A DNA stretch of 59,554 bases, counting the filler, from Dugesia japonica (lineage: Eukaryota), in the NCBI GenBank assembly GCA_001938525.1. It is 6 parts of 6 records of this genome, joined end to end, with 100 filler letters (N's around TTAATTAATTAA, not from the genome) between each part and the next. Parts side by side here need not be neighbours in the genome. Positions count along the whole stretch, not along the records: positions 42,155 to 50,368 come from MQRL01567496.1; 5 more parts are not named here. The stretch is one strand, 5' to 3'. The notes beneath the pieces are model-generated. The model made no database searches and had not been told where the DNA came from. It saw nothing but the letters and a program-made list of their open reading frames with translations. The translations under genes were made by a program, and so were the position numbers. Positions 19,207 to 57,145 of this stretch are shown here, piece after piece (positions within the stretch are counted from its first letter, which is position 1; every line of letters begins with the position of its first letter).

Positions 19207-19276
19207 GTTGTTTACACAATGAGGCGTGAACGGTGATTACGTCACTTCCGCGCGTGAAATTACCTAACCACCTACT
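19207..19276 (-). repeat. Putative Polinton terminus, family 2 (AGTAGGTGGTTAGGT...CGGAAGTGACG)
   Basis: Matches 1-54; its end faces into contig 3, so it belongs to a different, nested element. Confidence 0.55.
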
Positions 19277-19315
19277 AAAGATGGGTGTTATCATAGAAAA
19301 TCTAAACAATCAATA

Positions 19316-20162: not shown

Positions 20163-20171
20163 TTAAAAGAA

Positions 20172-20480: not shown

Positions 20481-20501
20481 ATCAAAACAATAAATAAATA
20501 A

Positions 20502-21779: not shown

Positions 21780-21841
21780 AGCGATGTTAAAAGAATTAAG
21801 CTGTAGAGCGATGCTACAAAGCCAAATGATAATTAAATAAA

Positions 21842-23302
21842 ATGTCTAATGAAAAAGAATTGTGTTTATTATGTAATAGGTATTTATCAAAAAGTCATAG
21901 AGCAAGACATTTTAAATCATGTTCAAAAAAGTATTCGAAAGAAGAGTATCCAGAAAAGTATGGCAGTGATCTTCAAAATAGTAAAATAACAAGTACTTTA
22001 TTAAAACCTTTTACTACAGAGAAATATCCAGGAGAAAGACATTTATTTAAACATAATTATACTGGACCAGGAACAAGACTGGATATTCGATTGGAAGAGG
22101 ATCCTGATGGTAATCTTGTTCCAAAACCAGGTGAAGAACCAGTAAATAGAGTTGATCAAGCTGCATTAAAACATGATATTAGTTATAATTCAGAAGATAT
22201 TAGAGATAGACATTTAGCTGATGTTAATCTAATACATGATTTAAATAGTATAGAAAAACCAACAATGTCTGAAAAAATTCAAAGAGGATTAGTTAAATTA
22301 GCAATGAAAGGAAAGATTATCCTGGGTTCAGGACTGGGTTCGGGACTTAAAGCTAAAGCTAAAGCTAAAGCTAAACCAAAGACTCCAGCTGAAATACTGA
22401 CTGATGAACTACATAAACCTTTTAATAAAAATAAAAAACATTTTCTTAAAGTTAAATTATTCTTTAAAGATGAAACTTGGTCAGCTGATTTAATGTTTTT
22501 AGGTCCATCCAAAGGTTTTAAGGTTGGAAGCCAGTTATCTAGAACTGGGCAATTAGTTCCAGTTTTAATAGTTATTGATTTATATACTAGATTTATATTT
22601 ATTGAAGTTTTGGAAAATAAAACTGGTCAAGAAGTAACAGATGGATTAGAAAGTATAATTGAAAAAATTAATCGAATTCCTAATAATTTATGGGTTGATC
22701 ATGGAAACGAATTTTATAATAAAAAGTTTCAAGAGTTTTGTGATGAAAATAATATTAATTTATATTCTTCTTCATTAAATACAGAACTTCAAGGTAAAGC
22801 AGTTTTTGTTGAACGAGTAATTAGAACATTTAAAAGAAGATTATACAAAATTTTTACTAAACAGGGTAATCAAAAGTGGAATATTGATTTATTAAATTCA
22901 ATAGCTGATGATTATAATAATACAGTTCACAGTTCAATTGGAATTACTCCAAAACTTGCTAGTTATTCTTCAGATTTAAAGTTAGAATCAAAGCTTTCAA
23001 AGAAAACAGTTAAATGGAATCTTGCTAATAAAGATTATCCAAACCCAAAGAAATTCCAAATAGGAGATCGAGTTAGAATCTTTAGAATTAAAGACACGTT
23101 TGAAAAAGGTTATACAGCAAATTGGTCTAAAGATATTTATACAATTTATAAAATTAATAGAGAAAATAATACATCTCAATCATTTGATGGAGTATTAACT
23201 TATAATTTAATCCAATCAACTGGAGATAGAGATGAAGATCCAGATAACTGGAAGATATTAGGTAGATATTATGCTAATGAGTTACAAAAGACTAGCTTTT
23301 AA
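21842..23302 (+). CDS. Fusion protein: N-terminal Zn finger + parvovirus-type PLA2 + rve (DDE) integrase
   Basis: CLLC..H..C; YTGPG and AALKHDISY...AD; WSADL, LWVDHGNEF, VERVIRTFK, YNNTVHSSIG and FEKGYTANWS. Confidence 0.92.
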   Translation: MSNEKELCLLCNRYLSKSHRARHFKSCSKKYSKEEYPEKYGSDLQNSKITSTLLKPFTTEKYPGERHLFKHNYTGPGTRLDIRLEEDPDGNLVPKPGEEPVNRVDQAALKHDISYNSEDIRDRHLADVNLIHDLNSIEKPTMSEKIQRGLVKLAMKGKIILGSGLGSGLKAKAKAKAKPKTPAEILTDELHKPFNKNKKHFLKVKLFFKDETWSADLMFLGPSKGFKVGSQLSRTGQLVPVLIVIDLYTRFIFIEVLENKTGQEVTDGLESIIEKINRIPNNLWVDHGNEFYNKKFQEFCDENNINLYSSSLNTELQGKAVFVERVIRTFKRRLYKIFTKQGNQKWNIDLLNSIADDYNNTVHSSIGITPKLASYSSDLKLESKLSKKTVKWNLANKDYPNPKKFQIGDRVRIFRIKDTFEKGYTANWSKDIYTIYKINRENNTSQSFDGVLTYNLIQSTGDRDEDPDNWKILGRYYANELQKTSF

Positions 23303-23350
23303 CTGGCAAGCTAACTGGAAATCTATAAATTTTAAATTAAAATAATAATA

Positions 23351-23587
23351 ATGATGGGTAATCAACAAGATAAAGATAAAGATAAAGATCAAGCAGTTGA
23401 TGATGAAAAGAATAAGAAACCAGATGGATTATGGAACTATCCAACTAGTTGGTTAACTACTGATACTTCAACTTACATGACTAAAGAGGAAGAATTAAAA
23501 GAAATTCAAGATATTAATACTTTTAACCAGGTTATGTTAACAAACATGGTGTTTACAAATTTAATTACTTCATCTATTTGGAAATAA
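23351..23587 (+). CDS. Small hypothetical viral protein (possible N-myristoylation, MGN)
   Basis: ORF filling the gap between integrase and ATPase. Confidence 0.55.
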   Translation: MMGNQQDKDKDKDQAVDDEKNKKPDGLWNYPTSWLTTDTSTYMTKEEELKEIQDINTFNQVMLTNMVFTNLITSSIWK

Positions 23588-23634
23588 TTTTTATAACCCG
23601 AGCGAAGTGAGGGTTCAAATAGTTTTATAATAAA

Positions 23635-24427
23635 ATGGCAACTCCTATTGTAAATCCAATTTGGAAAAATTCATCAAGTAAATTTAAACATGAAACATTT
23701 CCACCTCAATTTAGATGTTTAATTATTGGTTCGTCTGGATGTGGTAAAAATGTTTTACTATTAAAGATTTNNNNNNNNNNNNNNNNNNNNNNNNNNNNNN
23801 NNNNNNNNNNNNNNNNNNNNNNNNNNNNNNNNNNNNNNNNNNNNNNNNNNNCATGGATTTAATCAAGGTTTAAGTAAACAGGATTTAATTAATATTTTTT
23901 CAGATGAAATACAAAATAGAATTCCCAAAGATTTAAATCCTCAAGAAATAATCTTTTGGTATTCCAGTTCAGGACTGGCCAGTAAAGTTAATCAGGAAAC
24001 TGAAGAAGGAATCCAGGAAACTGGAATCCAGATTACAATATCAACTAAAGCATCTGAAATTGTACCATGTGACAAGTTACCTGCTAATAAAAAGAATTTA
24101 ATAATTTTTGATGATGTTGTAAATGAAAAGAATCAATCAATACAGAAATCTTACTTTACTAGAGGAAGACATAATAATTGCAATGTAATTTACATATCAC
24201 AAACTTATTATGATTTGGATAAAAATTCAATAAGAAATAATAGTAATTGTTTTATTTTCTTTAAACTAGGTAAAAGAGATAAAGATAATGTTTATCATGA
24301 TTTATTTAGTAACATTTTTAATACTAAAGAAGAATATGACTTTGAAACTAATTACCATTGGAAAACTAAATATAATTATTTTTATCTAGACAAGGAAAAG
24401 GAAATTTTGTCAGATGATCTATTCTAA
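23635..24427 (+). CDS. A32/FtsK-like genome-packaging ATPase (spans an N gap)
   Basis: Walker A IIGSSGCGKN, Walker B LIIFDD, FTRGRH, YISQ and IRNN. Confidence 0.9.
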
Positions 24428-24497
24428 ATATCTTAAAGCTAAAATAAAGTAATAATAAATAGTTTATAGAAACCTCACTCACTACGCTCGCTCGGTT

Positions 24498-25100
24498 ATG
24501 ACAAACAGTAATACAACTGAAAAAGAATTGTTAGATTTAATAAATAGTGACAAAAGTAAATCAATAAGAATTAATGGTAAAAACTATTGGATTGGAAAAA
24601 GAAGTAAAGATTTATTAAAACAAAGATTAGAAAAAGAAGGAGGAATATTTCCATTATTAGCTTTAATACCTGGTATTTTAGCTGGAATTGGAGCTGCAGG
24701 AGGTGCAGCCGCTAGCATTGCAAAGGTTGTTTCCAATTCAAGAGAAGCTAGTAATAAAGTTAAAGAATCTATTGAACTTGATAAAAAGAATAAACTATTA
24801 GATGAACAGATCAACCAGTTCCAGACTGGACAAGCTAGTAAAGCTAGCCAACTAGTTGGAACTGCAGAGAATAAATTACCTCAATCTGGCCAGTCAACTG
24901 GAACAGTCCAGTCGGGGACTGGAATTTATTTAAATCCTTATCAAGGTTCAGCTATTCATAAATATTTAAAACCTTACTTAAGTAATACAAAAGTAATAAA
25001 TAAAAAGAAATTTAAAAAGGGAATAGAAATTATACCTAGTGGTAAAGGATTATATTTAAATCCGTATTCGCATGAAGAACATAACCCAAATAAAACTTGA
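24498..25100 (+). CDS. Putative virion core / membrane-active protein (pX-like)
   Basis: EGG followed by hydrophobic IFPLLALIPGILAGIGAAGGAAAS; two GxG(I/L)YLNPY repeats. Confidence 0.65.
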   Translation: MTNSNTTEKELLDLINSDKSKSIRINGKNYWIGKRSKDLLKQRLEKEGGIFPLLALIPGILAGIGAAGGAAASIAKVVSNSREASNKVKESIELDKKNKLLDEQINQFQTGQASKASQLVGTAENKLPQSGQSTGTVQSGTGIYLNPYQGSAIHKYLKPYLSNTKVINKKKFKKGIEIIPSGKGLYLNPYSHEEHNPNKT

Positions 25101-26044
25101 ATAAAATGAATGATTGGATTGAAGATAGAATAAAAAGTTTAAAGGATCAAATTAAAGCAAGGGAGAAATATGACAAGTTTATAGTTGAACAAGTTTCATT
25201 TTCTAACCAGTTTTCAAATCAGTTAACTGGAACTTGCCAGTTCAGTAGTCAGTTGACTAAAGAACCTGTTATTAAAGAACCTGCTCCAACTAGTTGGACT
25301 AAAGAACCTGTTAAAGAACCTGTTAAAGAACCTGTTAAAGAACCTGTTCCAACTAGTTGGATTAAAGAAGAAGAACCTGTTCAGGAAGAAAGAACAACAA
25401 GTGATAGATTTAGAATAAGAAAAGAACAATTTCCAATTTGTAAAAAGTATGATTTACCTCCTACTTTAATTCCTTATGTTGTTTATGATGATGATGAAGC
25501 TTTTGATTCTTTTAAAATTGGTTCAGATATTATTTATTTAAAACAAATAAAGATGAATGATTCAATAGATAAATATTTTCAAATAAATGATTTAAAACAA
25601 ATACCATTTAATAAAGAAGTATTAAATTTAATGTTTGGTTATGGATCTAATGATGATGAAGCTAAAAGAATTTATTTAAATAGTTTTAATTTTTCTATTC
25701 CTCATTCAAGTAAATATATTAGAGCATGTAAGAATAAGGGAAATTTTGATGAAGAATTTAAAAAATTAAAAAATCCTCCTCCATATAAAGAGATTGATAC
25801 TGTAAAGGATTCTGTCCAGTTAACTGGAAAGGATTCTATCAAGGCTATTGGAGATGGATTAATTAACAACCAACTAGTTGGAAATCCAATAAAGTTGTTG
25901 GAAAAGTTTGTAATAATTACTAGTGCAATAAAAGCTGGCCATGATAACATGTCAGATGACTTTAATAAAATAATTAATCAGATGATGGATGATAAATTAA
26001 TAACAAAAGCCAAATATGATAGACTAAAGAAAAAGTATTTGTAA
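25097..26044 (+). CDS. Conserved Polinton protein with KEPV repeats and C-terminal KAGH motif
   Basis: Intact ORF; homolog on contig 1. Confidence 0.7.
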   Translation: MNKMNDWIEDRIKSLKDQIKAREKYDKFIVEQVSFSNQFSNQLTGTCQFSSQLTKEPVIKEPAPTSWTKEPVKEPVKEPVKEPVPTSWIKEEEPVQEERTTSDRFRIRKEQFPICKKYDLPPTLIPYVVYDDDEAFDSFKIGSDIIYLKQIKMNDSIDKYFQINDLKQIPFNKEVLNLMFGYGSNDDEAKRIYLNSFNFSIPHSSKYIRACKNKGNFDEEFKKLKNPPPYKEIDTVKDSVQLTGKDSIKAIGDGLINNQLVGNPIKLLEKFVIITSAIKAGHDNMSDDFNKIINQMMDDKLITKAKYDRLKKKYL

Positions 26045-26124
26045 TCTCAATATCTTAAAGCTAAATTAATATATATAAAATAGAAACCTCACTCACTACG
26101 TTCGCTCGGTTAACTCACTCGCTT

Positions 26125-26838
26125 ATGTCTCATCAATTTTTAATATATGGTCAAGAACATGAATTAGAAACTAAATTATCAAATGGTTTAAATTTACAAG
26201 GTGAATGGGAAATGGCTTTAATCTGGTTCACTACATCTAACATGATTTTAAATATAAATAATAAAAATAATAAATACAAGATCAATGGTAAAGAAAAAGA
26301 ACTAACTCCAGGTGCATATGAAATTAAACAAATTGCTGAACGGTTGACTGTCGACTTCATTCAATTGACATTTGATGTATCAACAGGTAAAGCTTTTATC
26401 CAACTTTATAGTGATAGAGATAAGAAAAATCAATCGTCAGAAGTAAAGCTTGAATTTGATAATACTTCTTTTTTTCATACTATATTAGGATATAATGTTT
26501 TACCCAGTGGTTATCTATTAACTGGCCAGTTAAATGGACAATTTATTTCAGATAATAAAATTAATATTATTGACATGAGTACAATCAATATTGTTTGTAA
26601 TATTGTTCAAGGTAATTATTTAAATAATAAAGAATACAATTTATTACATAGTTTGCCAATGGGGACAGTTCCTTGTGGATATAGGATAACTGACAGGCCA
26701 GCTAATCCAATTTATTCAAAACTTAATACAGATTTTATATCTAGAATAAAATTAAATATAGTAGATGAGAATTTAAATACAATAGACTTTGATGGAGAAA
26801 AGATTAATATTTTATTACATTTGAGACAAGCCAGGTAA
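26125..26838 (+). CDS. Penton / minor capsid protein (single jelly-roll)
   Basis: GEWEMAL, PGAYEI, INIVCNIV and IDFDGEKINILLHLR. Confidence 0.85.
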   Translation: MSHQFLIYGQEHELETKLSNGLNLQGEWEMALIWFTTSNMILNINNKNNKYKINGKEKELTPGAYEIKQIAERLTVDFIQLTFDVSTGKAFIQLYSDRDKKNQSSEVKLEFDNTSFFHTILGYNVLPSGYLLTGQLNGQFISDNKINIIDMSTINIVCNIVQGNYLNNKEYNLLHSLPMGTVPCGYRITDRPANPIYSKLNTDFISRIKLNIVDENLNTIDFDGEKINILLHLRQAR

Positions 26839-26874
26839 CCAGTTAACTGGCTGGCCAGATAATTATAATAAGAA

Positions 26875-27399
26875 ATGACTACTAATCCAACTAGTTATTC
26901 AATAGTAGACTTTCTTAAAACATTTGGCATATCATCTACAACTAATTTTAATTTATTAGATATTGCTAAATTATTAAATTTAAATGTTTATGTAGTAATG
27001 AAGAATGAAATGGAAGAATATATAAATTCAAACCAACCAGCCCAGTTAACTGGAAGTTGTCCAAGTTCTTGGATAATCAACTATCAAAATTCAAATCAAA
27101 AAGGAACTCATTGGGTTGCCTATGTTAACTGTACAGCTGGCCGGTCAAATAATTCTTTAAATGGTTATTATTTTGATTCTTATGGACTAGCTCCATTAGA
27201 TTGTATAATTAATATTCCAAACTGTAAATTAAAATGGAATAAAATACAAGTTCAACCTTGGAAAACTAAAATATGTGGTATATTATGTATTTACTTTATT
27301 TATAAAATGCATAATGGAATTCCAAGTTCCAGTCAACTGGGTTCAAATTTTGATTCTATAATTAAAGAACTAAAATCTACCTTTAAAGAATGGCTTTAA
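26875..27399 (+). CDS. Adenain-like cysteine maturation protease
   Basis: GTHWV (His), YFDSYG (Asp), QVQ (Gln) and ICG (Cys). Confidence 0.92.
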   Translation: MTTNPTSYSIVDFLKTFGISSTTNFNLLDIAKLLNLNVYVVMKNEMEEYINSNQPAQLTGSCPSSWIINYQNSNQKGTHWVAYVNCTAGRSNNSLNGYYFDSYGLAPLDCIINIPNCKLKWNKIQVQPWKTKICGILCIYFIYKMHNGIPSSSQLGSNFDSIIKELKSTFKEWL

Positions 27400-27429
27400 A
27401 TAAGCTAGCTTTAAATTCTATATAAAGAA

Positions 27430-28671
27430 ATGACTCATTCTTTTTCAAATGTAATAATGAATAGATTTGGAGAAACATTGGAGAATAAAAATACTAATCA
27501 ATTACTAGAAGCATTTGATGGTAAAGTAGAAAGTAAAATTAATTTAAAATTAAAGATTCATCAACATGAAGAACAGCTTTTAAATAAAAAGTATGATGAT
27601 AGAGAATATATTGATAAACAAATTGGACAGTTGACCGGTCAGTTGACAAGACAACAAGTTACTATTGTCAAACAACAAGTTACTATAGACACTTTATTGG
27701 AAACTAACAAAATACAATTGAGTGATAGGAAAAAAGAATTTATTAATCTAAAGAGTGAAATGTTAGTTCAACTTGAAAGTTTTAAACAAATTAAAAATTT
27801 TTATAAAGATGAAATGAATAACCAACTAGATCTACAATTAGTTAAATTAAAAAGGGTAATAGTTAAACAAGTTGAAGAATTAAAAAAAGAAGTTAGAGAA
27901 TTAACAAGTAAATGTAGTCAAGATAAATGCAAGAATGTGAAAGAAAAATTTAATAAAGTAAAATATGATGTAGATTATTTGAATCAAACACAAAATGATC
28001 CTTTACCTGGATTGGAAAAAACTTTTTTATCTTTAGTATTCATTTATATTAATGATAGAGAATATCTTGTCAAGATTTTAAATGATTTAAAAAAACAAAG
28101 AGAACAAAAGAAACTTTATTCTCCTAATTTACTTAAAGAGTTAAAAGATGGAATTGAAAATTATTTTCCATATTTCTTAGATCCATCCATTAATATAAAA
28201 AGATTTTATTATCTATTATTATTTCATTTATCAATAGATAAAGTTATTGATGATCTACCAAGTGTTTTATTCTTTAAAATGAAAAAATTAAAAGCATATA
28301 GAAAAGGAATATATATTAAAAAACCAAGAGGAGAATCTTATTATCAACTAGAAGAAGATATGATATTAAATTTTGAATTATTAAAAGAAATAGAAAGATT
28401 ACATTTTCAATTTACATTTGCTTGTGATAAAGGTTTTTATGATCCTGAAGCAAGTATTTCTTTAATTAATGAAATTTTAATAATAAATGAATCTATTCCA
28501 GTAGTTTTTAAAAACTTTGCTTATAAAACAAAACTAATAGGTCAAACATCAAATATATTTCGAATAGAAAGTTTAGAAATAGATAGGGGAAAAACAAAAT
28601 GGTTAAAATTTTCAATAACCATTAGTAATCGTACTTGGTTTAAAGATTTAAAAATATTCAAGTCAAAATGA
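27430..28671 (+). CDS. Hypothetical coiled-coil viral protein
   Basis: 413-aa intact ORF in the viral gene array. Confidence 0.7.
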   Translation: MTHSFSNVIMNRFGETLENKNTNQLLEAFDGKVESKINLKLKIHQHEEQLLNKKYDDREYIDKQIGQLTGQLTRQQVTIVKQQVTIDTLLETNKIQLSDRKKEFINLKSEMLVQLESFKQIKNFYKDEMNNQLDLQLVKLKRVIVKQVEELKKEVRELTSKCSQDKCKNVKEKFNKVKYDVDYLNQTQNDPLPGLEKTFLSLVFIYINDREYLVKILNDLKKQREQKKLYSPNLLKELKDGIENYFPYFLDPSINIKRFYYLLLFHLSIDKVIDDLPSVLFFKMKKLKAYRKGIYIKKPRGESYYQLEEDMILNFELLKEIERLHFQFTFACDKGFYDPEASISLINEILIINESIPVVFKNFAYKTKLIGQTSNIFRIESLEIDRGKTKWLKFSITISNRTWFKDLKIFKSK

Positions 28672-28696
28672 TTAGACTCAAATTATTTAATAAAAA

Positions 28697-29494
28697 ATGG
28701 AAGCTAACAAGTTATCATCTAACAAGTTATCATCTATTAAAATATACCCAGATTTAAACAATGATTTAAACAATGATTTAAACAATGAAGAAGAGGACAA
28801 CCGACAATCAACTGGAAATTCAACTAGTATGACCATTCAAGATTTAAAAAATAAATTAAATCAAACAAGAATTAAAGATTTTGAAAATGATCTAGAGTGG
28901 ATAGAAGATAAACTAAAACATTATAGAAAATTAAAAAGAAGATGGTCAAAATTTGATAGTGGAGTTAGATTTACAGATGTAGGAATTTCCACGTTTGTAG
29001 GTTTAGCTTCAGGAACAATAATATTAATGTCTAGTTTATCTTTTGGAATACCTTTATTAGTAACTGGAATAGTTACTGGAATCCCAATTATTTATTCTAT
29101 TGCACATGGATCTTTAAGAGTTAGTTTAATAAAAAGTAGAATAGTTAAATATACAGTAAAAATTAAATTATTAGAAGAAACTAAAAATAAATTATTCCTC
29201 TTTCATACTAAAGCTTTGGAGGATAATAAATTAAGTAATGAAGAAATTAAAATTAGTAAAGATATAATTAATAAACTTAAAGACCAACTTGTTGGACAAC
29301 TGTCCAGTGATCAATCAACTAAACAATCAACTGTTCAGCCGACTAGTGGTCAGTCAACTGTTCAGACAACTGTCCAGTCAACTGGACAACTAGTTAGTGA
29401 ATTGGAACATTTTAGTAAATCATTTCCAATATTAATGCAGCAGATATCTAGTCAGCTAACTGGACCCAGTAATATAAAAAAAAATAAACAATAA
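28697..29494 (+). CDS. Two-TM coiled-coil membrane protein
   Basis: Hydrophobic hairpin VGISTFVGLASG...IPIIYSIA; KALEDNKLSNEE. Confidence 0.7.
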   Translation: MEANKLSSNKLSSIKIYPDLNNDLNNDLNNEEEDNRQSTGNSTSMTIQDLKNKLNQTRIKDFENDLEWIEDKLKHYRKLKRRWSKFDSGVRFTDVGISTFVGLASGTIILMSSLSFGIPLLVTGIVTGIPIIYSIAHGSLRVSLIKSRIVKYTVKIKLLEETKNKLFLFHTKALEDNKLSNEEIKISKDIINKLKDQLVGQLSSDQSTKQSTVQPTSGQSTVQTTVQSTGQLVSELEHFSKSFPILMQQISSQLTGPSNIKKNKQ

Positions 29495-29526
29495 AAAATA
29501 ACATCACTAAATTATTTACTTTTAAA

Positions 29527-32107
29527 ATGGCAACTAGTAATGATATTGGAAATGATATTGGAAATGCTATTGGAAATGCTATTGAAAGATATTGTGAAAT
29601 CTGTAATCAACATTTCAGAAGTAATTATCATTTAGAAACTCATTTAAAAGGAAAAGCTCATTTAAAAAAAGTTGAATTAAATAATCTTGGTAATTCATGG
29701 AGAAGATGTCACATATGTAATTTAAACTTTGATAATATTGTAAATTATAATAGACACTTGCAAGGAAAAAGACATCAAGATAAAGTAGTTCAAATAGCAT
29801 TAGAAGCAGAATCAAGTGGATCTGAAATTGAAACTATTTCCTCTTCTGATTCGGAACCAACTACTTCAACTAGTTTGAATCTTAAAGAATTATTTAAAGA
29901 TTTTATTTTACCAAGAGGTGAATATGAAGTAGAAACTTGTCAACAATCAATGATTAAATTGAAGAAATATTTCAGTATTTATAAAAATGAAAAACAACCT
30001 GCTGTTGAAAATATTTATCAATTTAATCACAGAATTAATTTTAATCTTTTAAAAGATTATTCTAATGAAATGAAAGACATGACTAATCTATTTATTATTA
30101 ATTTTCAAAAAGTAGTAGTATCAATAACTTGTTCAACTACTTATACAAAAGATTTTGTTGGACAAGATAGTACAAAGAATCAACAGTGGATTAAAGATTA
30201 TGATACTCATTCAGAGAAAATTACAATGTTTAGTCAAATTAATGATGTAATTGATAAAATGTTGGATCAATTATCTGAGGATATTTTCACTACAGAGACT
30301 CAAGGATCAGGTTGGTCATTTGAAAAGTTTAATTCTTTTAGAATTGAACTATCAAATTATGAATCTTTAGTAGGTCAGGGCTATTGTTTATTACCCAGTT
30401 TATTGAGAAATATTCCTGGAATTCTAAATATAAAGAATCCAGAAAATGATTACAATTGTTTTAAATATTGTATAATGGCTCATCTTGATCCTACTTTGGG
30501 AGATTCNNNNNNNNNNNNNNNNNNNNNNNNNNNNNNNNNNNNNNNNNNNNNNNNNNNNNNNNNNCTCAATTGGTTAGGAATTAAAATGCCAATGGAGATA
30601 ATAAATATATCAAAATTTGAAAGATTAAATGATTTCCAAGTTAATATCTTTGTGATAATTCCATCCAAAGACAAACCTAAAATACAAAAACTTTATTCTT
30701 CTCACCTAGAAACTAATCCTTCTCATAAAGATAGGAAATGTAATTTGTTATTATTTAATTCTCACTACATTTTAATTAGAAATCTAAACAAAATTAATAC
30801 AAAATCTAAACACACTAATGAATTGTGTATTAATTGTATGAACTGGAAAAGAAGTAAAGAATCATTAATCAAACATCAATTACTCTGCTTAAAACAGAAA
30901 GAAGCAGAGATTAAGTTTAGCTTTGATCCTATTTACAAGTTTAACAAGTTTTATATGAAAAACAAGAATCCTTTCACTATTTATTTTGATATAGAAACTT
31001 ATAAGGATTCCAATAATAACGAATTAATACCATTTGCTTTAGGTTTATATCTAGTTAGTAATCATCCTGAAGTTAAAAAATATATACAATTATTTCACTG
31101 GACCTGATTGTATTAGTAAATTCATTAAATGGTTATTAAAATTTAATGACTTGTTTGAAAGAATAATCAAAACAAGAAATGAATCTATTGAACTTGATCA
31201 AAAGAATCTAGAGCTAGCTTCCAATGAAAAGTGTTATTATTGTAATTCTTCACCTTCTGAGTCACTTGGTTACACTAACTGTGAATTTCTTTCAGTAAAT
31301 CCATGGACAGGAGAATCTAGAGGCTTTGCTCATCGTGAATGCATCAAGAAATTTGAGAATTCTAAAAAGTATTTCATACCAGTTTATGCACATAATGCAT
31401 CCAAATTTGATAATCACTTTGTTTTTAAGGAATTGTGTGAATCTAATCCTGAAAAAATTAATAATCTAATTCCATTAAATGATGATGTTTATATCTCATT
31501 TTCTATAGAAAGATTAAGATTTCTAGATTCTTTAAGAATGTGTAGTGGACATTCTGTAGAAAAGATGGGACAGGATTTATTAAAAAGTAAAAACCATCCT
31601 CATTTAACTAGTTTTAATCTAAAACCAGCAAAAGGAATCTATCCTTATGATTATGTAAGTGGAAAAGATTATCAAGAAGTTAAAGATAAATTAATAAATT
31701 TCTATACTCATATTGATGATTTTTACAATGTATTACGACAAACTAAACTATCTGAATCTGATTTTGAAATATTTAAAAAAGAATATTCAAATTTTAAAGA
31801 TCTACTTGATTATACACTACATTATATGCAACTTGATGTAATAATCCTAGCAGACTTTTTTGAAAACTTTAGGTCTTTATCACTAGAAAGGAATCAAATT
31901 GATCCAACTTATTGCTATAGTGCTCCAGGATTAACATGGGAAATAGGAATGAAAATTTCAAAAGTAGAATTAATAAATGCTAATCCTCGAAACTTTGACA
32001 TGTTTCTAACTATAGAACAAGGAATAAGAGGAGGATTTTCAGGAGTTTGTGGAAATCGACATGTTGTAGCTGATGAATTTCATACAATAAAGTGTCTTGA
32101 TGAGAAT
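29527..32107 (+). CDS. Protein-primed family B DNA polymerase with N-terminal Zn fingers; one frameshift, truncated at motif A
   Basis: GSGW, CFKYCI, YFDIET (Exo I), AHNASKFD (Exo II), RFLDS, KGIYPY, YMQLDV (Exo III), IRGG and LDEN. Confidence 0.92.
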
Positions 32108-32345
32108 AGATGAGTCATATGAGATTGGATGGATGGTTTGTCCTACAACTATGGTAGCGCACTGTCACAGTCGTATGAGTTATCGTGGGNNNNTTTTTAG
32201 GAAGGCTGTAGGTTTGTATGGGTTTGTTGGAATTTATTGGTTGATAGTTTGTTGGAGAGGTAATGTGATTCAGAAGATTTTGTATGTCGAATGTGCTTTG
32301 AATTTTTATTTTATGACCTTTAATTTGATTGGTTAATATTTGTAA

Positions 32346-38263: not shown

Positions 38264-38903
38264 TTGAACACCATTTTTAAAATATTTATTAGTTGCCATC
38301 AATTTCGACAAAATAACCGTCATCATCAGGCAATTAAAGAATATTAAAACAAACTATTTATAAACTATTTATAATGTTCTTAAGAATATAATAAATATAA
38401 AGGTTGTATCGCAATCTCAAAAGGTTATAAATATGTTCAATAATAAATCTATAACCAGTTTAGAATTGTGCTCTGATCTGGTTTATCAATTTAAATGTAA
38501 TGGGTATAACGCCACACACATTGGAGAAACTTGCTGTCATCTCTACACCAGAGTACAAGAACATAGTCGAAATAGTGGAAATAGTAATATTGTGGAGCGT
38601 CGAAAGAAATGTATAAAATCACTAGGGTTTTCTGATTTTAAAAAATTTTACAATGAATTTAATAATTATTGGGAGAGAGTGATGTGTGAAGCTTTGTTGA
38701 TAAGGACACATTAAATCCTAAAATTAATGTTCAGTTGACAGATTCAACATTCTGCTTAAAATGATTTTATTGATTATTTATTGAGATTGTATAATTGAAA
38801 TTATATAATCATTTAAACTTTATAAATAGTTTGTTTTAATATTCTTTAACTGTCTAATGATGACGGTTATTTCGTCGAAATTGAAAAACAAATGGTGTTC
38901 AAT
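38264..38903 (+). mobile_element. Penelope-like element 3' fragment: GIY-YIG endonuclease flanked by inverted pLTR copies with hammerhead cores
   Basis: LVYQFKC...HIGET...TRVQEH...EALLI; 38264-38364 is the inverted copy of 38817-38903. Confidence 0.85.
38303..38329 (-). ncRNA. Minimal hammerhead ribozyme core
   Basis: CTGATGA-T-GAC-loop-GTC-GAAA. Confidence 0.6.
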
Positions 38904-40799
38904 TATTTATTTTAAAAAAATTACCATTACTTTTTGGGTATTTAAAATGTATTTGTTTAATTAATTCAAAAAATAAACATAATTTTAAATCTTTAGTATT
39001 AAAAAAATAATCGCTGTAAAATGTTTTTTATCCATAGCAACCATAAGCTTCAATAATTTTCTTCACTGTTTCAATAGATGCATCCAATGTTTTACCCATA
39101 CGAATATTTGTGAATTTTTGTTGCTCATTATTTAGAAATGATCTTATTTCATCAATATGTTTAAAATCTGTACGACTTCTCTCTCGTCTTTTAAAAAGAT
39201 AATTGCCACAAATATTTATATCTGTTGAATATGGATGTTTACGAAGAAGTTTTGCGTTTTGAGATTCTATATTATTTTATATTAATTAATTATAACATAT
39301 TATTTTGTGACAAAAGAAATTATTATCATTTACTAAACTTAAGAAATAATTAAGAGCTCTTACAACAAATTGAGAATTAGAAACAGTAAAATACTAGTAA
39401 AACATGATAGGATGGAAATAGGTATAGAATTTTACATACCTACTCACAATATTTTCTAAACTTGTTCAGTTATTTTCTTTGTCCCATCAGTTATTTCTTT
39501 GATTGATATTCAATTATTAAACAAGTAATCAAATAAAAAACATTTCCAATTTTCAATATTCTAGATTTATTAAATTTATTTCAACTAGAAATGATTTTTA
39601 TATTTGCTGTAAATATTCCAATTTTATGGTAAATTTATATTCTGGCAGTAAGTAGAATAGCAGGTCAAATAGTATGCAAAATTAGAATCCTACAATAATA
39701 AATGTCCGCCTTTGAATTGTTTGTCTTACGTTTTACTAAACGCGAATATTTGTAAAATTTTGAAGTAAAACAATGAAAATAAAATCATCAGGGTATATCT
39801 TTTCAGTTTGACTATTTTTATGTTTTCCTCTTCTTTGTCTCTACTTAGATTTTGTTTTTAACTGTTTTCTAGAATTCTGTTGGATAAATGATTTAATTTA
39901 TTTCAGATTCAATTCAGAATTATTGTAGGACTCTTGACCAATTCTAAATCATTTAATTAGAAACAAAGACAAGTAAAAAACATTTTCATTGAAAGACAAC
40001 TAAAGGTTTCGTTTGGTGTATATTAGTTAAATTAAAAACCTCACAACTCTCCATAAGCTTTTATTTATTATTATAAGTTTTTTATTAAAGCGAAAAACGA
40101 TGAAGAACAATTCATAGTATTCAAACAAACAATCGGAGAAATTTAATAAAATATTTTGAAAATATCGATTTTAATTTTACAAAATATTTTTACTTTACAA
40201 ATATCTTTAATTGTTTTTAAATATAATTTCATAAAATAATTTTTATACTTCTATAATATATAATATATAGAAATAATTTAAATAATTTGTATTTAAAAAA
40301 TGTTTTATATTTGAAAAATTTGTTTTTACTTATTTACAATCAAATTTGAATGTTTCAAAAAAATAAATTTTAATATAATACAATATAATATATACCAAAT
40401 TAAAAAATTTCCCAGATATTTTAAAATCTATGAATCACTCTTACAGTGTTGATTTTTCCATTATAAAGTACTACCCAGTTTTATATCCACGTTTTATGTA
40501 ACAAATAAAAAACAACGAGATCTCACTTAATATGCACATATAAATATTATTAACAGCCCAACCAACTAAAAAATGGGTGCGTATCCACTTTTTCCCCGCA
40601 ATTTTATTGGAAAAAAAATTGACATCGACCACAAATTTATTATAAAACATGTTGTTTCAGCAGATAATTATTGTACTGATCTTGTCTTTGTATCGGCTTG
40701 CTTTGTTCGAAATGTGGATCTTCTTAAAAGCGAGTTGGCCAGTCTCTAATATTTATGTCCCTTTGAACAATTATCTTCGGGTGATTGTTTCCAATTTTG

Positions 40800-41145
40800 G
40801 ATTAATATATGTGAGTGTGTTTTGAAAAGCAAGTTGAAATTTTTGTGTGATTGGTGATTTTATTTTTAAAATCTTTTGTTTAAAAGAGAAATTTAAATNN
40901 NNNNNNNNAAATTTAAATAAACAAATATATAAATTAAAATTATTGAATAAAGTTAAGCTTTTTAATAAATAACATTTTAAAAGTGAACGGAAATTTCGTC
41001 GTAAATTTTAAATGAAAATTAAGTAAATAAATAAAAATGTTTTTAAATGAATTAAATTAAATTAATTTTAATAAATAAATTTTTCGATTTTTCCTTTTAG
41101 AAAAAAGATCACCAATTAAAACACGGGATTTTAATTTGTTTGATT
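40800..41145. mobile_element. MITE-like dispersed repeat; reverse copy at ~45020-45450
   Basis: Both ends match the other copy; subterminal ATTGGTGAT...ATCACCAAT inverted motifs. Confidence 0.6.
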
Positions 41146-41892
41146 AAAAAATAGTGTTGGCTATAGTTTGTATTTTTGAAATAAATTTTATGGAGTTGAA
41201 TTCTGATGTTAATGATTCCATGAGTTTTCCAAACTCATCTAACAATATATATTCTTTTTTATCTGCATAACTATCTGTCACCATACTTACAGAGTGCNNN
41301 NNNNNNNNNNNNNNNNNNNNNNNNNNNNNNNNNNNNNNNNNNNNNNNNNNNNNNNNNNNNNNNNNNNNNNNNNNNNNNNNNNNNNNNNNNNNNNNNNNNC
41401 CATTAGTTATAAACAATGTTGCTATTTCATGTAATGACTTTGTACTTGAAAATACTTCATTGACTAGCTTTCTAAGTCTAATTTCAAAATTTTGATATTT
41501 TTCATTTGGTTTCTGCATTATTTTTGACAAGATTNAAATTTTATCAATCAATGTTTCCTGAATGAATGATTCTTGAAACAAAGTTCACAAATTTCATTAG
41601 ATAATTTCTCAACTTCTTTTGTTTTTTCCAACCACAATTTCTTAGCATTGTGGCTCGTTAGCATATCAAAAGCAAACGATAATTCCATATGATTGAACGA
41701 ACGGAACTCTTTTATTGTTTCAAGCCACTCTTTAGTCATGTATAATGATCCGTCATAGAAACTCGGCTTCGAAATCAGTAACTCTTGAGTTGAAGACGGT
41801 AATTTCAAAAAAAATTGTCTTTCATCTTTTTCTTTCTTTGCCAACTTGTTCACTGTACCTTGGTCACCAGTTAGAACAGAAGATTCTTTCAT
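41144..41892 (-). pseudogene. Retrotransposon gag-like remnant
   Basis: KPSFYDG...EWL and MQKPNEKYQNFEIRLRKL resemble Ty3 capsid motifs; frameshifted. Confidence 0.55.
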
Positions 41893-43575: not shown

Positions 43576-45019
43576 AAGGATAATTTCATGCGCATCAATA
43601 CAAAATCAATACGAAATGAATAATGAGAGACAATTCCAAAGATAAACGACATAGCCTCAACCAAATGCGTCTACCGTGGATACTTATCGTTATACTTGGT
43701 CTGCCTTGCAATTTATTATAGGTTATTCTTGGTCGTTAGCATATATAAAACGACGCATTCCTAACATGTTTCTATCACTCGCTTTCACTTGCATGTTTAA
43801 TACCTCGAAAAATTATAAAATTAATACCACCCAATATAAATAAATCCTCACTCACCAAAACCATAAAATTTCAAATATAAAATTTTGCATTATGAATAAG
43901 ATTGTTATACCAAAAGGGAGTGCACCGTTTTATATATACTTCGGTTGGTCTCATAATAATTAATTTTTTTGTATTAGAAAAATGGAAGAGATTATTGAAT
44001 GTATAAAAGAAGATTTAGAGTTTATGAAAGATTTAAAACAAGATTATTTTAAAGTTATAAAGTTTACACCAAAATAACAAAGTTTAATTTTAAAAGATAT
44101 TTTTCCAAAGTTTAGATTATTTAAAGAAGCAATTAATTTAGCTGAAAATGTAATTAATGATTTAAAAATTGAAGTTGAAACTTTGAAAGATGAATTAGAA
44201 AAATGAAATAAATATAATAAAAAGAAAATTGAACAAGTTGTTAATAAAAATAAAATAATAACAACTACTATAAAAAAACTAAATAGAAAAATAAAAAAAT
44301 CACTTCAATAAATTATAATAGAAAATCTCTATAGAAATTAATACAAAAGAAATAAATAGTTTTGTAAAAAGTATTATTATTTTAAATAAAAAATGTGAAC
44401 ACCAAAATAATAACTGTATTTTTAGTATTTATTATTTGTATAATTCCATATGTAATTCTTTATACAAATCATTATGTAATTCCAAATGTGATTCCTTTTG
44501 TAAATTCTTATTTTATCACTAAAGAAAATGACAATGGAAAGTAAAAGAGAGTTGTGTGTTGATGTTGTCGAATATATTAATTGTGCAAATAACTATGATT
44601 CAAAACAATTTATTAAATCTCAGAAATGTTTTTAGCAGCTAAATATCAAGAATTATGTTTTAAAAATTCAAATTTAAAAGATTCTATTATTGCTAAAGAA
44701 ATGAGGATGTCTATTCAAATATTGAATAAGAGAATTAAATTTAAAACCTGAAAGAAAAAGATATCCTCGAGTAAAATATTCTATTGATGATAAATCTTGA
44801 CAATATATTAAAAATTATTATGGTGATTATTTTTTTAATGTAAAAACAAATTCTTTTGAACTAATAGAAAAGCTTATAAAAGAAAGTTTAACAGGAAAAA
44901 AGAAACAATTCATCATTATTATTGCTAGTTGTGTTTGGAACACTCATCATATCATCAATATCAAAATTCGAATTTATTACAACGCTTTATTAATATAAAA
45001 ACTATAGCCAACAATATTT

Positions 45020-45450
45020 GTTAAACAAACAAATTAAAATCTTGTGTTTTCATTGGTGATCATTTTTCAAAATCTAAAACTNNNNNNNNNNNNNNNNNNN
45101 NNNNNNNNNNNNNNNNNNNNNNNNNNNNNNNNNNNNNNNNNNNNNNNNNNNNNNNNNNNNNNNNNNNNNNNNNNNNNNNNNNNNNNNNNNNNNNNNNNNN
45201 NNNNNNNNNNNNNNTTGAAACTTAATTTATTTAACATAATTTTAATTCAAAAAATTTTATTTATTTATTTAAAATTAAAATAAATTTACGTTTACTGAAA
45301 AGTTTTAATTTATCGTTAAAATAAATTTTTGTTATTTAAGTTCTTCATCAAAACTTTAAATCTTTCTTTTAAACAAAAGATTTTAAAAATATGATCACCA
45401 ATCACACAGAAAATTTAACTTGCTTTTTTAAACACACTTACAATTATAAT
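45020..45450. mobile_element. MITE-like repeat, reverse copy of 40800-41145
   Basis: Reverse-complement similarity at both ends. Confidence 0.6.
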
Positions 45451-45658
45451 TAAAAAACACTCAAAGTAATTTAAGTATTTCAACTTTAAGAAAAAAATTT
45501 ACATCAAGAAAAATAAATAATAATGAAAGTGGTGTATCTATTTTAGAAAATATAATGAATGATTCAGAGAACGATTTTAATAAAACCTTTAATTAAAAAA
45601 TAAAAGGATAGCTAAAGGCTAGCCAAATTTTGGCAAAGATAGTGAAAAAGAATATTTA

Positions 45659-45917
45659 TTTTACAATTGCAATTATTGAGAGAATAATTGTTGGATATAA
45701 CCATTGATCGTTTTTCAGAATTCATTTAAAATAAAAGCTTNNATCNAAATTTGTTTTTTTTTTGGATTTTGAAAGTAATTCTATTTTTCGACTTAGTCTT
45801 CTTCAGGAATTGACTTTTCAAGAAAAGTCAATTCCTGAAGAAGACTAAGTCAAAATATAGAATTATTTTCAAAATCCAAAAAAAAATAAATTTTGATCTA
45901 AGCTTTTATTTTAAATG
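45659..45917. mobile_element. Hammerhead-bearing short retroelement, fold-back double copy with 12-bp TSD AAAGAATATTTA
   Basis: TSD at 45647-45658 and 45918-45929; palindrome 45721-45919; CTGAAGA-A-GAC-TAA-GTC-GAAA on the minus strand at 45786-45806. Confidence 0.75.
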
Positions 45918-46087
45918 AAAGAATATTTAATTCATATTCAAACAATGAAAAAATTTCTATAATGTAAAATTTATTGTAAATGATTTATTAAATCAACTTC
46001 AAAGATTTATAGAGCATGAGGATCAAAATAAATCTGGTTGGAATATAGATAATATTGTTGATTTTAAAATCGAACTTAGTAAATATC

Positions 46088-46239
46088 TCTTGTTCCTGAA
46101 GAAGACTATTGTCGAAAATTTGAAATTTTTTATAAATAAATTTTATTTTGATCGAAGCTTTTTCTTATTTTAATGAAATCACAAATGCGATCAATGGTTA
46201 AGTCCAACAATTATTCTCACAATAATTGTAATTATAAAA
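46088..46239 (+). mobile_element. 152-bp hammerhead-bearing short retroelement with 12-bp TSD TTAGTAAATATC
   Basis: TSD at 46076-46087 and 46240-46251; CTGAAGA-A-GAC-TATT-GTC-GAAA at 46096-46117; PolB frame resumes after removing it. Confidence 0.8.
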
Positions 46240-48109
46240 TTAGTAAATATCAATCATAGATTAGTTCTTCCTTTGTAAAATTACCATTTGGAAAACAAGG
46301 TGTAATTAATAATTATATATAATAATATATAAAAAATACATAATATATATAATAATATATAATATTATATATATAAATATATGTTTGATCAACCAACTCG
46401 TGTTTCAAATTATGTCCCTCATTTATCAGAATTAAAAACAAATGAATTGAAATTTCCTGGAAGTATTGATGATGTTAAATTATTTGAGAAAATGAATGAT
46501 TTTAAAAAGAAAATATTTGAAGTAAGTAATAAAGCTAAAATCTATCATGTTTATATTTCTCATTATAAAAGTAATCCTAAACCAGAGGAAAATAAATGTA
46601 ATTTATTATTTCACAAAGGTCATAATATTTTGTGTAGAAATAATTGGTGTATTTGCGATTACTAATAGAAATAAAAATGAATTATGTTTATGTTCTATGA
46701 ATTCATATAGAAGTACAAATTTATTAATGAATAATCAAAAAGGATTTGTTTTACACGAATCATCTAATTTTATATTTGAAAGTGATAAATATTTTTAATT
46801 TACAAATAATCATTTTACAACATGAATTTATAATTTTTAATGATTTTGAAAGCTGGACTAACATCAACACTAAAAAACAAAAATCATTATTTCTTGGTAT
46901 TTGTTTAGTAAGTAAATATCTAGATTTAATGAATATAAAGTATTTTATGGTGAAAATGTAATTAATCAATTCTTAAATTCTTTTTTAATCAATAAATTAA
47001 ATAAAATAAAAGAAAATAAATTAATTAAAATATATACTGAAACAAAACATCCTAACTTTACACAAGAAACTAAATGTAAAAATTGTAATGAAATGATAAT
47101 CTCAGATCTTGTAATAGACCATGATCATTTTAATGAGGAATTTAGAAGTTATGTTAATAATAATTGTAATCAATAAAACATTTATTTATACCATTTTATT
47201 TTCATAATGCATCTGGATATGATAACCATTTATTTTTCAGAGAATTATTAGAAAAATATCCAACATAAGTTTTTATTTATTATCACAATTTTTGATTTAA
47301 GTAAAAAAGATGAAGAATAATCCATAGTATTTAAAACAAATAATCTGAGAAATTTAATTTTCATTTTTAAATTCTTAAAATAAAATATTTTAAAAATTTT
47401 GATTTTATTTTAAAAATTTATACGTTACATAAATGATGATTTGTTGGAAGAATATGTAAAAACGTTGAAAGAATTTGAAGGTTTTCAGGCTCGTTTACGT
47501 ATGGCATTTGAGAAAAAGAAAAATGTTATCAAATACTTTCAAAATTTACATTAAATAACACTTCTTGCCATACTGTTATGGGGAAGTTTTATGGTATATT
47601 ACATATGTCTAACATGCAACATATGTTCATATTCACACATAATTTTACAAAATACATACACATTTAACAGAATTTAACAAGGAAAAATTATTTACTAAAC
47701 TAATTAATATTTATGTTCCTTCTTGGAATAAAATAAAATTAGAAACTAAAATAATAGATATAAGTGATAATGAAACAGTAATTAAGGTCGAGGTATTTGA
47801 TACTCCAGCTGTTGATCCGGTTGTTGATCCGATTGTTGATCTGAGTGTTCATTCAGTTAATGATCCGACTGTTGCTCTATTTTGTAATTCTGAGAATTTT
47901 GATGACAAAATAGGAAGTTTGTTAAAATAGGTTATTGATGAATGATACTTTCGATAAAGAAATAAATGACGAAGACCAGGTTTTGAATATGTATTTAGAA
48001 GATGAAACTCAAATTAGAAACTCCTATTCTTGATTGACCAGTTGTTGAAACTCATTTGCATAAATTCTATCGAATACTAAACAAAAATGTTTCTAATTAT
48101 AATTTGAAA

Positions 48110-49305
48110 GAAATTGTGGAGACCGTCTTTAATCGTCAAAGTATTCAAGTCAATCGCTTTCCCAAATTTCGCTTCAATATTTCAAATTTAATTTTCAATT
48201 GTTTCATCCGTTTGTCATGGATCTTTCGCATAAGCTGGTATCCAAAAATATTCTGCATATCTATTCCTCCTATCAGATCTGGTGTCACTCTTTCAGCAAC
48301 TAAGAAAATAATCTCTTTGCAAACTTCATCAATTATCACTCCAGTTCTAACTTTCCCAACAATTTCAAGTGCACTATTATTTGTAAAACGCAATCTTTCA
48401 TCATATTATCTAAATGTAGTTCTCGTCATTTATTTATAAACAGCTTGAACTCAACATTAATTCTAGCCCCTGTATCTAATATACATTCAACTTAATTTCC
48501 TTGAACTGATACCTTAACACTTGGCTGCCTTGCAATTTATGGTATGAAATATTTGTTTTCTGTTTTGCTTTAATTGCTTCAATCCATTTGGCTTTTCTAT
48601 CATCCACAAAATTTTTGTTCTTTAAAAACCTGTATACTTTTTCAATAACCCTCCCGATATTATCCCATTTTTCGACCCCTTGAGAAAAATCACCCACTTC
48701 ATTTAACAATGGTTGGCTCCAACAAACTCCTCTACTAGTAGAGCCCTGCTTTTTAAGTACTGCCTTTCGGTATCACTTTCATTTACTTCTTCATATCCAT
48801 CATTTTTGTTGACATCTGCATCTTCAATCGCATCTACTCGATTATACCGGTTTCTTTATTTTTCTTCAGTCATAAATTTCTCACTTGTTCTTTTCATTTA
48901 TAAATTTATGTAGCACTCTTCTGCCTTAATTCCACCATAACCACGTGGTTTAAACCTCACTTCTTGACATAACCTTCTAATATGACCAACCTTTCCACGA
49001 GCAAATCATTTTGTTTGTTATTATTTGGACAATCTCGACTTATATGTCCAGTTTTATGACAAGTCCAACAATCTACCACTTTTTTATCGGACAACTTGCT
49101 TTAGTATGACCGATATTTTGACATGACCAACATTCGATATTTTGTTTTTCTTTTTTTTGATTCACATGTCTATTCATTGTATAATTTGCACATTTCTGAC
49201 AATTTTGACTTGTAACTCTTGTGTAACTTCTAACTGCATAAACTTTATATCTGTTTTTTTCTACTTTATCTACTAACGTTATTGTTTCTTAAATTTTTTC
49301 TATAT
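48110..49305 (-). mobile_element. Ty3/gypsy gag-protease fragment, same family as 1934-3060
   Basis: CCHC knuckles, CILDTGARINV and VTPDLIGGIDMQ. Confidence 0.85.
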
Positions 49306-49779
49306 TTAGTTGTTTCCACAAAATTTTGGGTATTTGAAATAATAGATATATTTGAAACCAGCGAAACATTCTCTATCGAGTAGACACTTTATTGATTTAT
49401 TTTGAGAAGAAATAATTTTTTCTAAAAATTCTGTATAAATACTGGGAAGATCTAAAATGATCGCCGTAAAATTCCGAGTAGAATAATGTAAAATTGAAAA
49501 ATTATTTTTTAATTTTTTGGATATCTCGAATTCACATAAAATATTCAAATAAAAAAATTGAAAATTTTCATTTTATTTAAATAACATAAATTTTTCAATC
49601 GGATTTTCACAAAAAATTTATATTATCTTTTAAAAAATTTAAAATTCAAACAAATTCGACTTTTACCATGAATTTCCTTAAAATTTAATCCAAAATGACC
49701 AGCCGGAGGAAATTATCACATAAATTCAGCTAAAACTGATCTTTGCTTTTATATAATAAATATAATATAATAAATAATT

Positions 49780-55690: not shown

Positions 55691-55974
55691 NNNNNNNNNN
55701 NNNNNNNNNNNNNNNNNNNNNNNNNNNNNNNNNNNNNNNNNNNNNNNNNNNNNNNNNNNNNNNNNNNNNNNNNNNNNNNNNNNNNNNNATTTGCTACTTC
55801 TTGAAGTATGAATGTAGACAGATCACCTTCATATTATTTTCTCAATATAATCAATGTAATTTATAATAATTAAATATAAAAAAAAAATTAACCAATTAAA
55901 ATTTAGTAAAAACAAAATTAATTCATAGAAAATTACTATTGTAAAAATAAATATTGAATAAATCAAAAAAATCC

Positions 55975-56116
55975 AATTCCTGACGAAGAAAAAGTTGAAA
56001 ATTAGAATTATTATCAAAAACAAAAAAATTGATTAAAGCTTTTATTTTAAATGAATTCTGAAAAACGATCAATGCTTAGGTCCAACAATTATTCTCACAA
56101 TAATCGTTATTGTAAA
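55975..56116 (+). mobile_element. Further, decayed copy of the hammerhead short retroelement (inverted relic at ~56135-56280)
   Basis: TTCCTGACGAAGA...AAGCTTTTATTTTAAATGAA...CGATCAATG...TCCAACAATTATTCTCACAATAAT shared with 46088-46239. Confidence 0.7.
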
Positions 56117-57145
56117 TCATTTAAACTTAACATGATTTTCACAATTACAATTTGTACTAGAATAATAGTTGGACTTAATTATTGGTCACATTTTTATGTT
56201 TAAATCACAAAGCTCAGTACAAAATGGTATTTTTATTTTTGTCAGCAATCTGAACTTTTGACGATAATTTTCAAGAAAAATTTTCTATTTAATTTTAAAG
56301 TTAATTATTGAAAAACAATATTATCGAAAATTCGGATTGCTAAAAAGAACATGAAAATATATCATTCTGATTTAAACTTTTCAATTTCATTGAAATTTTC
56401 ACATGAATTTAAGGAATTTTTAGTCAATACGAAAAAATAGTCAATTTAAAATAAATGAATAACTTTTACAAAAATAAACTCATAAACAAATAAGTGGTTT
56501 TAACAGAAATAGAATAAAAATAGATAGATGAGATACGAAAATGGAAGTCAGAATTCCAGAGTACATTCAGGGAGCGAACTAAAATAAAGATTAAACCAAT
56601 CAGCATACGCTACATAAAAAATTGACCAATCATATGTTATCACGAGTTTCCAAAATCGAATTACTAAAACGAGAGTGAAAATGTTAACTAAACCAATTCA
56701 TTTACTATCGATTAGTTGAAATTTAAAGGACGATACAAATAAATTCATAAATTGAAATAATCGATTGGAATCTATATGCTGATTCTTTGTATTCAGAAAA
56801 TAATATTTGATAAATCAAAATGAATTCATTTAAATCATTTTAATTATAAATATGCTATTCTTTATAAATTATGACTGAATTAATTGAAAAAATGGTTTCT
56901 TATAAAAACAAGTAATCGAAAGGAAAACTATTTGATAAATTAATACATCAATAGTTAACAAATAAGAGATATTTAATGTTCAGTTTGCAAACTGAAACAC
57001 GTATATCAACAGACTGCTCATTTTCATTCGACATTATCTAATCAAACATATCCTAGATCCGTCACAATTCGTACAAAATATTATGTAAATTTTATTAAAT
57101 TTATTTTTTTCTAAAAAAAACAAAGAAAATAATATTCTAAATAAC

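Follow-up and report, generated by a model that had tools for sequence, protein, structure and literature searches.

A 152-bp insertion with a minimal hammerhead in Dugesia japonica, probably the pseudo-LTR stub of a Penelope-like element

The 152-bp insertion at 46088-46239 of the window (the whole stretch of DNA analysed here, 59,554 nt of Dugesia japonica from GCA_001938525.1 in six joined parts, with 25% GC and many degraded mobile elements) is flanked by a 12-bp target-site duplication (TSD), carries a minimal type I hammerhead motif, and belongs to a family whose members share their ends and in two cases lie head to head. We think it probable, if not strongly so, that the insertion is a stub of the terminal pseudo-LTR (pLTR), with a tail, of a coding, endonuclease-bearing Penelope-like element (PLE). 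An initial annotation of this DNA had described a TSD-flanked retrotransposed element with a minimal hammerhead, probably moved by the RT/GIY-YIG machinery of PLEs, a description that the analysis supports.

The insertion, its host site and its family

Both flanks of the insertion hold an exact copy of TTAGTAAATATC, a sequence with no further occurrence on either strand of the window, and a repeat of at least 12 bp arises in only 1 of 2637 random placements with the same geometry. The 152-bp insert and its 12-bp TSD lie at 46076-46251 exactly as first annotated, with the following features.

45955-47262, plus strand: decayed Polinton pPolB-like region interrupted by the insertion, with several stops and frame changes (protein similarity)
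46076-46087, plus strand: left 12-bp TSD copy, TTAGTAAATATC
46088-46239, plus strand: the 152-bp insertion, a solo end-piece of PLE pLTR type in direct orientation (end-to-end homology with three sister arms)
46173-46238, plus strand: ATG-started 22-codon frame reaching the 3' end, a weak candidate for the ORF start of a pLTR plus tail (frame and length shared by all three well-kept copies)
46207-46229, plus strand: 9-bp hairpin with a C-rich loop near the 3' end, a candidate RT initiation element (predicted folds)
46240-46251, plus strand: right 12-bp TSD copy, TTAGTAAATATC

A second frame besides the 22-codon one is likewise open; the 22-codon frame has no match in a protein search, and a word-index protein search with the 50-residue frame of the sister copy at 55968 found nothing. 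In predicted folds the hairpin has an 8-bp counterpart in the long arm at 45659 and is unformed in the other two 3' ends. No empty-site paralogue of the insertion is present inside the window.

The left flank of the insertion resembles a stretch (residues 248-291) of the pPolB N-terminal ORF found elsewhere in the window (29488-31107; E 2e-6), which bears out its earlier placement in a Polinton polymerase. The similarity picks up again at residues 365-432 (46447-46641) and then at 47176-47262, with frames changing, and the short right flank, searched alone, has no significant match and is followed by a stop. Given the further frame changes and this stop, the interrupted gene is a pPolB relic broken at several points, and the insertion is incidental to it. 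Within the relic, 46916-47176 gives a weak Endonuclease_7 match (E 8.7e-5), and around it 40052-41247 and 44920-47358 have three short segments in common (two inverted, one direct) that are 79-85% alike.

We note that the window also holds a largely complete Polinton gene block (19268-32113, plus strand) with a double jelly-roll capsid, an integrase with a PLA2-like domain, an A32 ATPase, a penton-like ORF, an adenoviral-type protease, and a pPolB that occupies two frames and bears C2H2 zinc fingers at its N-terminus. The ORF that follows 29488-31107 matches DNA_pol_B_2 (E 3.7e-11), and the polymerase of that Polinton is frameshifted. Pieces of another Polinton at 6213-7242 (minus strand) give protease and penton-like matches to this block. 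In addition, two copies of a 1.1-kb repeat (1902-2990 and 48164-49306; 76% identical), with gag/protease-like frames including a zinc knuckle, are probably the relic of an LTR retrotransposon.

A search with an nhmmer profile built from four arms, to which all model positions below refer, finds six arms in four insertions within the window. Besides the insert at 46088-46239, these are arranged as follows.

45647-45658, no strand: left TSD copy of the head-to-head insertion, AAAGAATATTTA, the second 12-bp TSD of the family
45659-45821, minus strand: long arm of the head-to-head pair; of all hammerheads in the family its own is the best preserved, with the core at 45806, an extended helix I of 5 bp and the triplet AUA
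45820-45917, plus strand: short inverted arm, ending about 60 nt short of the family 3' end, G12 not kept (alignment, profile search)
45918-45929, no strand: right TSD copy of the head-to-head insertion (12-bp repeat)
55968-56116, plus strand: solo copy with core CTGACGA, damaged helix II and 5-bp helix I; no clear TSD
56138-56271, minus strand: long arm of a second, older head-to-head pair (nhmmer E 1.2e-8)
56299-56395, plus strand: short arm of the older pair (nhmmer E 0.013), with core TTGAAAA (U3-A8)

The related copies named initially, at 45659-45917 and 55975-56116, are both genuine and 75% identical to the insert (BLAST E 4e-25 for 45659-45917 and 7e-22 for 55968-56116), but the first consists of two arms with a TSD of their own, the second starts at 55968, and the older pair at 56138-56395 had been missed. 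The arms of 45659-45917 are 91% alike over 200 nt, and an assembly artefact was rejected as the source of the palindrome because of this divergence, the TSD and the second pair of the same geometry. The short arm at 56299-56395 aligns with its partner arm better than 1000 of 1000 shuffles; no clear TSD surrounds this older pair. Long arms and solo copies end at model position 162, the two short arms at 101 and 102, and the three well-kept insertions have their 5' starts 8-17 nt before the core. The likeness between copies is 75-80%, and their motifs are damaged. None of the six arms in the window forms a head-to-tail tandem, and no RT plus GIY-YIG ORF, 3' UTR or coding continuation adjoins any of the four insertions there. 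Exact-pattern scans of viral and metagenome contigs found nothing.

Bases upstream of the 55968 copy weakly resemble the family 3' end: 10 of 1828 windows score as high, four of these are true 3' ends, and nhmmer misses the likeness. On this resemblance, a tandem junction could lie there. A 9-bp repeat around the same copy was rejected as a TSD, being at chance level in AT-rich DNA. Both 12-bp TSDs (46076-46087 and 45647-45658) hold TAAATAT on the element's strand, a possible target preference or a matter of chance in AT-rich DNA.

The minimal hammerhead

The string CTGAAGA-A-GAC-TATT-GTC-GAAA sits at 46096-46117, where the hammerhead core had been located initially, and the motif as a whole is laid out as follows.

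46093-46124, plus strand: minimal type I hammerhead, putative cut after 46121 (descriptor scan, folds, and the traits of minimal hammerheads in PMC4209133)
46093-46095 paired with 46122-46124, plus strand: helix I, 3 bp
46096-46102, plus strand: core CTGAAGA, with an extra A at 46103
46104-46113, plus strand: helix II, 3 bp, followed by GAAA at 46114-46117, with the palindrome AATT as helix III

The CUGANGA...GAAA...UH core is present together with helix II, H being U in the insert, A in two sisters and C in the older pair. The insert has both the unpaired base between positions 9 and 10.1 and the G10.1-C11.1 pair, and segment 15.1-16.1 reads AATT, a palindrome, in three of the five arms examined, the insert included. 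The short stem III that had been read from ATT-TGA-AAT does not stand: in a sister copy, AATTC before the core pairs with GAATT after GAAA-AA-TA, in a helix that is longer still in the predicted fold, so that no separate stem III remains and the GAA after GAAA-AT-TT in the insert is the 3' strand of helix I. This helix has 3 bp in the insert versus 5 bp in three sister arms. Compared by eye, 46088-46095 resembles the upstream sequence of the long arm minus 9 nt of the helix I 5' strand, a loss that would explain the shorter helix.

A descriptor written for minimal type I motifs finds two sites in the window, at 46096 (plus) and 45806 (minus), both within the insert's family, versus a mean of 0.11 and a maximum of 1 in 100 windows simulated with a third-order Markov model. 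Rfam reports no hammerhead on the window (8 matches, chance or hairpin) and none on the insert, where its 6 matches fall far short of the gathering threshold; the mir-4798-type hits reflect only the palindrome. The predicted fold of the insert is no better than shuffles (z 0.10) and does not favour the hammerhead, and the helix covariation score, from five sequences only, is reached by 189 of 500 shuffles.

Hammerheads with U at position 17 cleave poorly, and the cleavage triplet of the insert is UUU. With this U17 and a helix I of 3 bp, the hammerhead of the insert, a real motif but a decayed one, is probably inactive. In the older pair, TTGAAAA replaces CTGAAGA in both arms (56271-56330), followed in the plus arm by GAAA-AT-TC; this U3-A8 form is possibly a compensated core variant, with C at position 17, or may be decay, given that the pair represents a single insertion event.

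The minimal hammerheads of PLEs described in PMC4209133 have an extra base after A9, a G10.1-C11.1 pair, a short helix I (4-5 bp) and a palindromic 15.1-16.1 segment. As that source reports, those of metazoans are mostly single, probably from truncated PLEs, with opposite-strand pairs 100-700 bp apart; a U3-A8 core variant occurs among them, and their activity is absent in the monomer and weak in the dimer (Cervera and De la Pena 2014, PMC4209133). The small family is like them in its type I core, the unpaired base after A9, G10.1-C11.1, the short helix I, the palindromic helix III remnant, the mostly single copies, the close opposite-strand pairs and the U3-A8 variant. It is unlike the families described there in its helix II, which has 3 bp and a 3-4-nt loop where the Schistosoma families have 7-8 bp and D. 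virilis has 6 bp, and in being known from arms alone, joined to no coding element in the window.

Coding Penelope-like elements for comparison

The window also contains a PLE relic of another family, at 38.4 kb.

38299-38884, plus strand: 5'-truncated PLE relic with a GIY-YIG ORF (38364-38714) between inverted 66-bp repeats
38329, minus strand: minimal hammerhead in one repeat, core intact (descriptor scan)
38846, plus strand: minimal hammerhead in the other repeat, core mutated (descriptor scan)

Its 66-bp repeats are 94% alike, a 32-bp palindrome marks the inversion point, and its inverted hammerhead folds well (z -3.1); the relic is frameshifted and lacks RT. When the family was compared with this repeat, 0 of 10 comparisons beat all shuffles (best 8/300), without significant DNA similarity beyond the core, and the relic was accordingly rejected as the parent of the small family. 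Having an unrelated repeat and no RT, it is neither parent nor mobiliser, and the element at 38433, named initially as an example of what had probably moved the family, drops out as such. What the relic does show is only that endonuclease-bearing PLEs act in this genome. An 11-bp repeat around it was rejected as a TSD, again at chance level in AT-rich DNA.

A word-index protein search with the GIY-YIG fragment found nothing; the 116-residue ORF at 38364 has 325 homologues. Among 11 homologues scanned, nine have RT, four have GIY-YIG (E 0.01 or better) and one has neither. No PLE relatives were found in viral contigs. In a PLE clade comprising the window's 38329 (minus strand), locus L001:2312 and protein P0177, the ORF seems to begin inside the hammerhead core, and the frame that follows the L001 3' motif is similar to the N-terminus of P0177; an ORF start inside the core is reported for PAc (PMC11167929).

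An alignment of 16 homologues of the RT plus GIY-YIG type led to 80 metagenome PLE loci, the best 80 of 130. Among these best 80, 31 carry the minimal hammerhead motif. In 25 of these it lies 81-437 nt past the endonuclease match, on the same strand; two have it upstream on the same strand, two upstream on the opposite strand and two elsewhere. The best hit includes the extra base in 28 of the 31. In one coding family of 11 loci, the shared sequence stops about 70 nt past the core in six, about 100 nt in four and earlier in one. Locus L041 carries an inverted 5' copy, and the 5' pLTR hammerhead of L006 and L057 resembles that of the insert (TTC/GAA in helix I, GAC/GTC in helix II). The first long ATG frame of the coding relatives checked begins inside the hammerhead (+3 or +26), whereas that of the small family begins at +71 to +81. 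Between the small family and the best 80 of 130 loci there is no match beyond chance.

Origin of the insertion

The pLTRs of Adineta Pen elements, as described in PMC3846280, are about 200 bp long, include the first 12-22 codons of the ORF, and are accompanied by an inverted, shorter 5' pLTR; palindromes at head-to-head junctions, an optional 31-bp tail, 8-10-bp TSDs and solo pLTRs occur among PLEs, and the same inverted-pLTR layout is given in PMC8557442. The PLE enzyme PAc cuts AT-rich DNA and begins at either of two sites inside the RNA, both in an AC-rich stem-loop, the distance between them being the tail, and insertion uses uncleaved RNA, so that ribozyme cleavage is unnecessary (PMC11167929). 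The small family is like the endonuclease-bearing PLEs of these sources (PMC3846280; PAc, PMC11167929) in several ways: its arms meet head to head around a palindromic centre, the inverted arm is the shorter one, there are two 3' ends, the target is AT-rich, the TSD is of around 10 bp, and a hairpin lies near the 3' end.

The stub reading rests on these features taken together: two independent head-to-head pairs, of which one has a 12-bp TSD, in which the short arms stop at 101 and 102 and not at 162; the inverted-pLTR-plus-tail signature of PLE integration (PMC3846280, PMC8557442); the traits of minimal hammerheads, which occur mostly singly and probably in truncated PLEs (PMC4209133); the coding loci with a downstream motif, the inverted 5' copy of L041 and the likeness of L006 and L057; and the inverted layout of the window's own relic at 38.4 kb. 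By target-primed reverse transcription (TPRT), a PLE RT/GIY-YIG protein would nick AT-rich DNA with a 12-nt stagger, and copying of the uncleaved transcript would begin inside it, about 140 nt past the hammerhead, and halt at the base of the hammerhead's helix I, so that a TSD-flanked stub remains. On other occasions the enzyme may add an inverted copy from a second start site about 60 nt further in, which would give the head-to-head pairs. The hammerhead would be a passenger, working only as a dimer or with the help of protein.

Several findings run against this reading. The 5' ends, within 8-17 nt upstream of the core, are tighter than random truncation predicts, and the four insertions never run into a 3' UTR or ORF. 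The short-to-long arm difference of about 60 nt exceeds the published tail of 30-40 nt (PMC3846280, PMC11167929), and the arms, unlike those of the elements described there, have no ORF body between them. Unlike endonuclease-bearing PLEs, the family has its first ATG frame 70-80 nt past the core and not inside it, a 22-codon frame without a protein match, and the weak 3'-end likeness upstream of the 55968 copy also counts here. That all copies are simply 5'-truncated ends of a coding PLE, a case the initial annotation had set against its own view, is the more likely reading, but it is not proven, as the coding parent was not found.

The missing parent, the tight 5' ends, the absence of any run into UTR or ORF, the arm difference and the position of the ATG frame keep alive a non-autonomous mini-PLE, in which pLTR-only masters with their own pLTR promoter are moved in trans via linear, uncleaved RNA, like SINEs and without circles. 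We regard this as unlikely. All four insertions are of pLTR size, start close to the core and have no coding continuation in the window; pLTR sequences alone suffice for PLE integration in trans (PMC3846280), and non-autonomous PLE derivatives are known (PMC8557442). However, coding PLEs, too, usually yield solo and inverted pLTR stubs (PMC4209133, PMC3846280), four insertions in one window cannot show that longer copies are absent, and copies 75-80% alike with damaged motifs give no sign of a young, homogeneous family. In its fullest form, which we put forward tentatively, this would be a pLTR-only mini-Penelope family of about 160 bp that spreads densely in trans (four insertions in 60 kb), has an older, compensated U3-A8 branch and keeps in its head-to-head pairs a record of both RT start sites, at the extreme as a 175-nt circularly permuted monomer; its hammerhead, with a 3-bp helix II and no helix III, would then be among the smallest natural ones, a point as tentative as the whole.

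Metazoan non-LTR retrozymes are described as tandem repeats with mostly canonical hammerheads and circular RNAs (PMC7229834; bioRxiv 10.64898/2026.07.22.740005), the type I form having a 6-bp helix I, a 4-bp helix II and a loop contact; the preprint (bioRxiv 10.64898/2026.07.22.740005) counts solo monomers as retrozymes too. The family is like them in being small, noncoding, low in GC, PLE-related and of monomer-like size, with a type I hammerhead and a long TSD (PMC7229834; bioRxiv 10.64898/2026.07.22.740005), and the hint of a 3'-to-5' junction upstream of 55968 points weakly the same way. Yet a long TSD, low GC and noncoding sequence are features of PLE stubs as well and thus not diagnostic. 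A strict retrozyme, in which self-cleaved tandem monomers would close into circles for a PLE RT to reinsert, is improbable: unlike those elements, the family has no tandem copy among six arms, a minimal motif of PLE type with a 3-bp helix II, and no Rfam hit; the insert's fold is at z 0.10; and head-to-head pairs with a TSD are a PLE signature. A cleaved monomer should start past the cut and end with the core, whereas the arms show the reverse, starting upstream of an uncleaved core, and do not fit such a monomer. The retrozyme-like reading given initially is dropped on the grounds of the missing tandem copy, the PLE-type motif, the upstream starts and the inverted-pLTR layout. Least probable is an unrelated SINE or foldback element with a chance hammerhead likeness, for although Rfam gives no hammerhead match and covariation is not above shuffles (189/500), the chance motif frequency is 0.11 per window, the extra base, the palindrome and the extended helix I of the long arm, all outside the descriptor, fit PLE minimal hammerheads, and the solo copies lack terminal inverted repeats.

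In sum, as a PLE stub the insert is ordinary, since the arrangement is known in many animals, whose genomes hold thousands of such motifs. It is of use as a compact record of PLE integration, with a 12-nt stagger, two fixed 3' ends 60 nt apart and a point of inversion that falls on the base of helix I. Should a census reveal no coding continuation of the copies, the family would be a clean intermediate linking retrozymes with pLTRs; such a link was proposed on phylogenetic grounds in a 2026 preprint.
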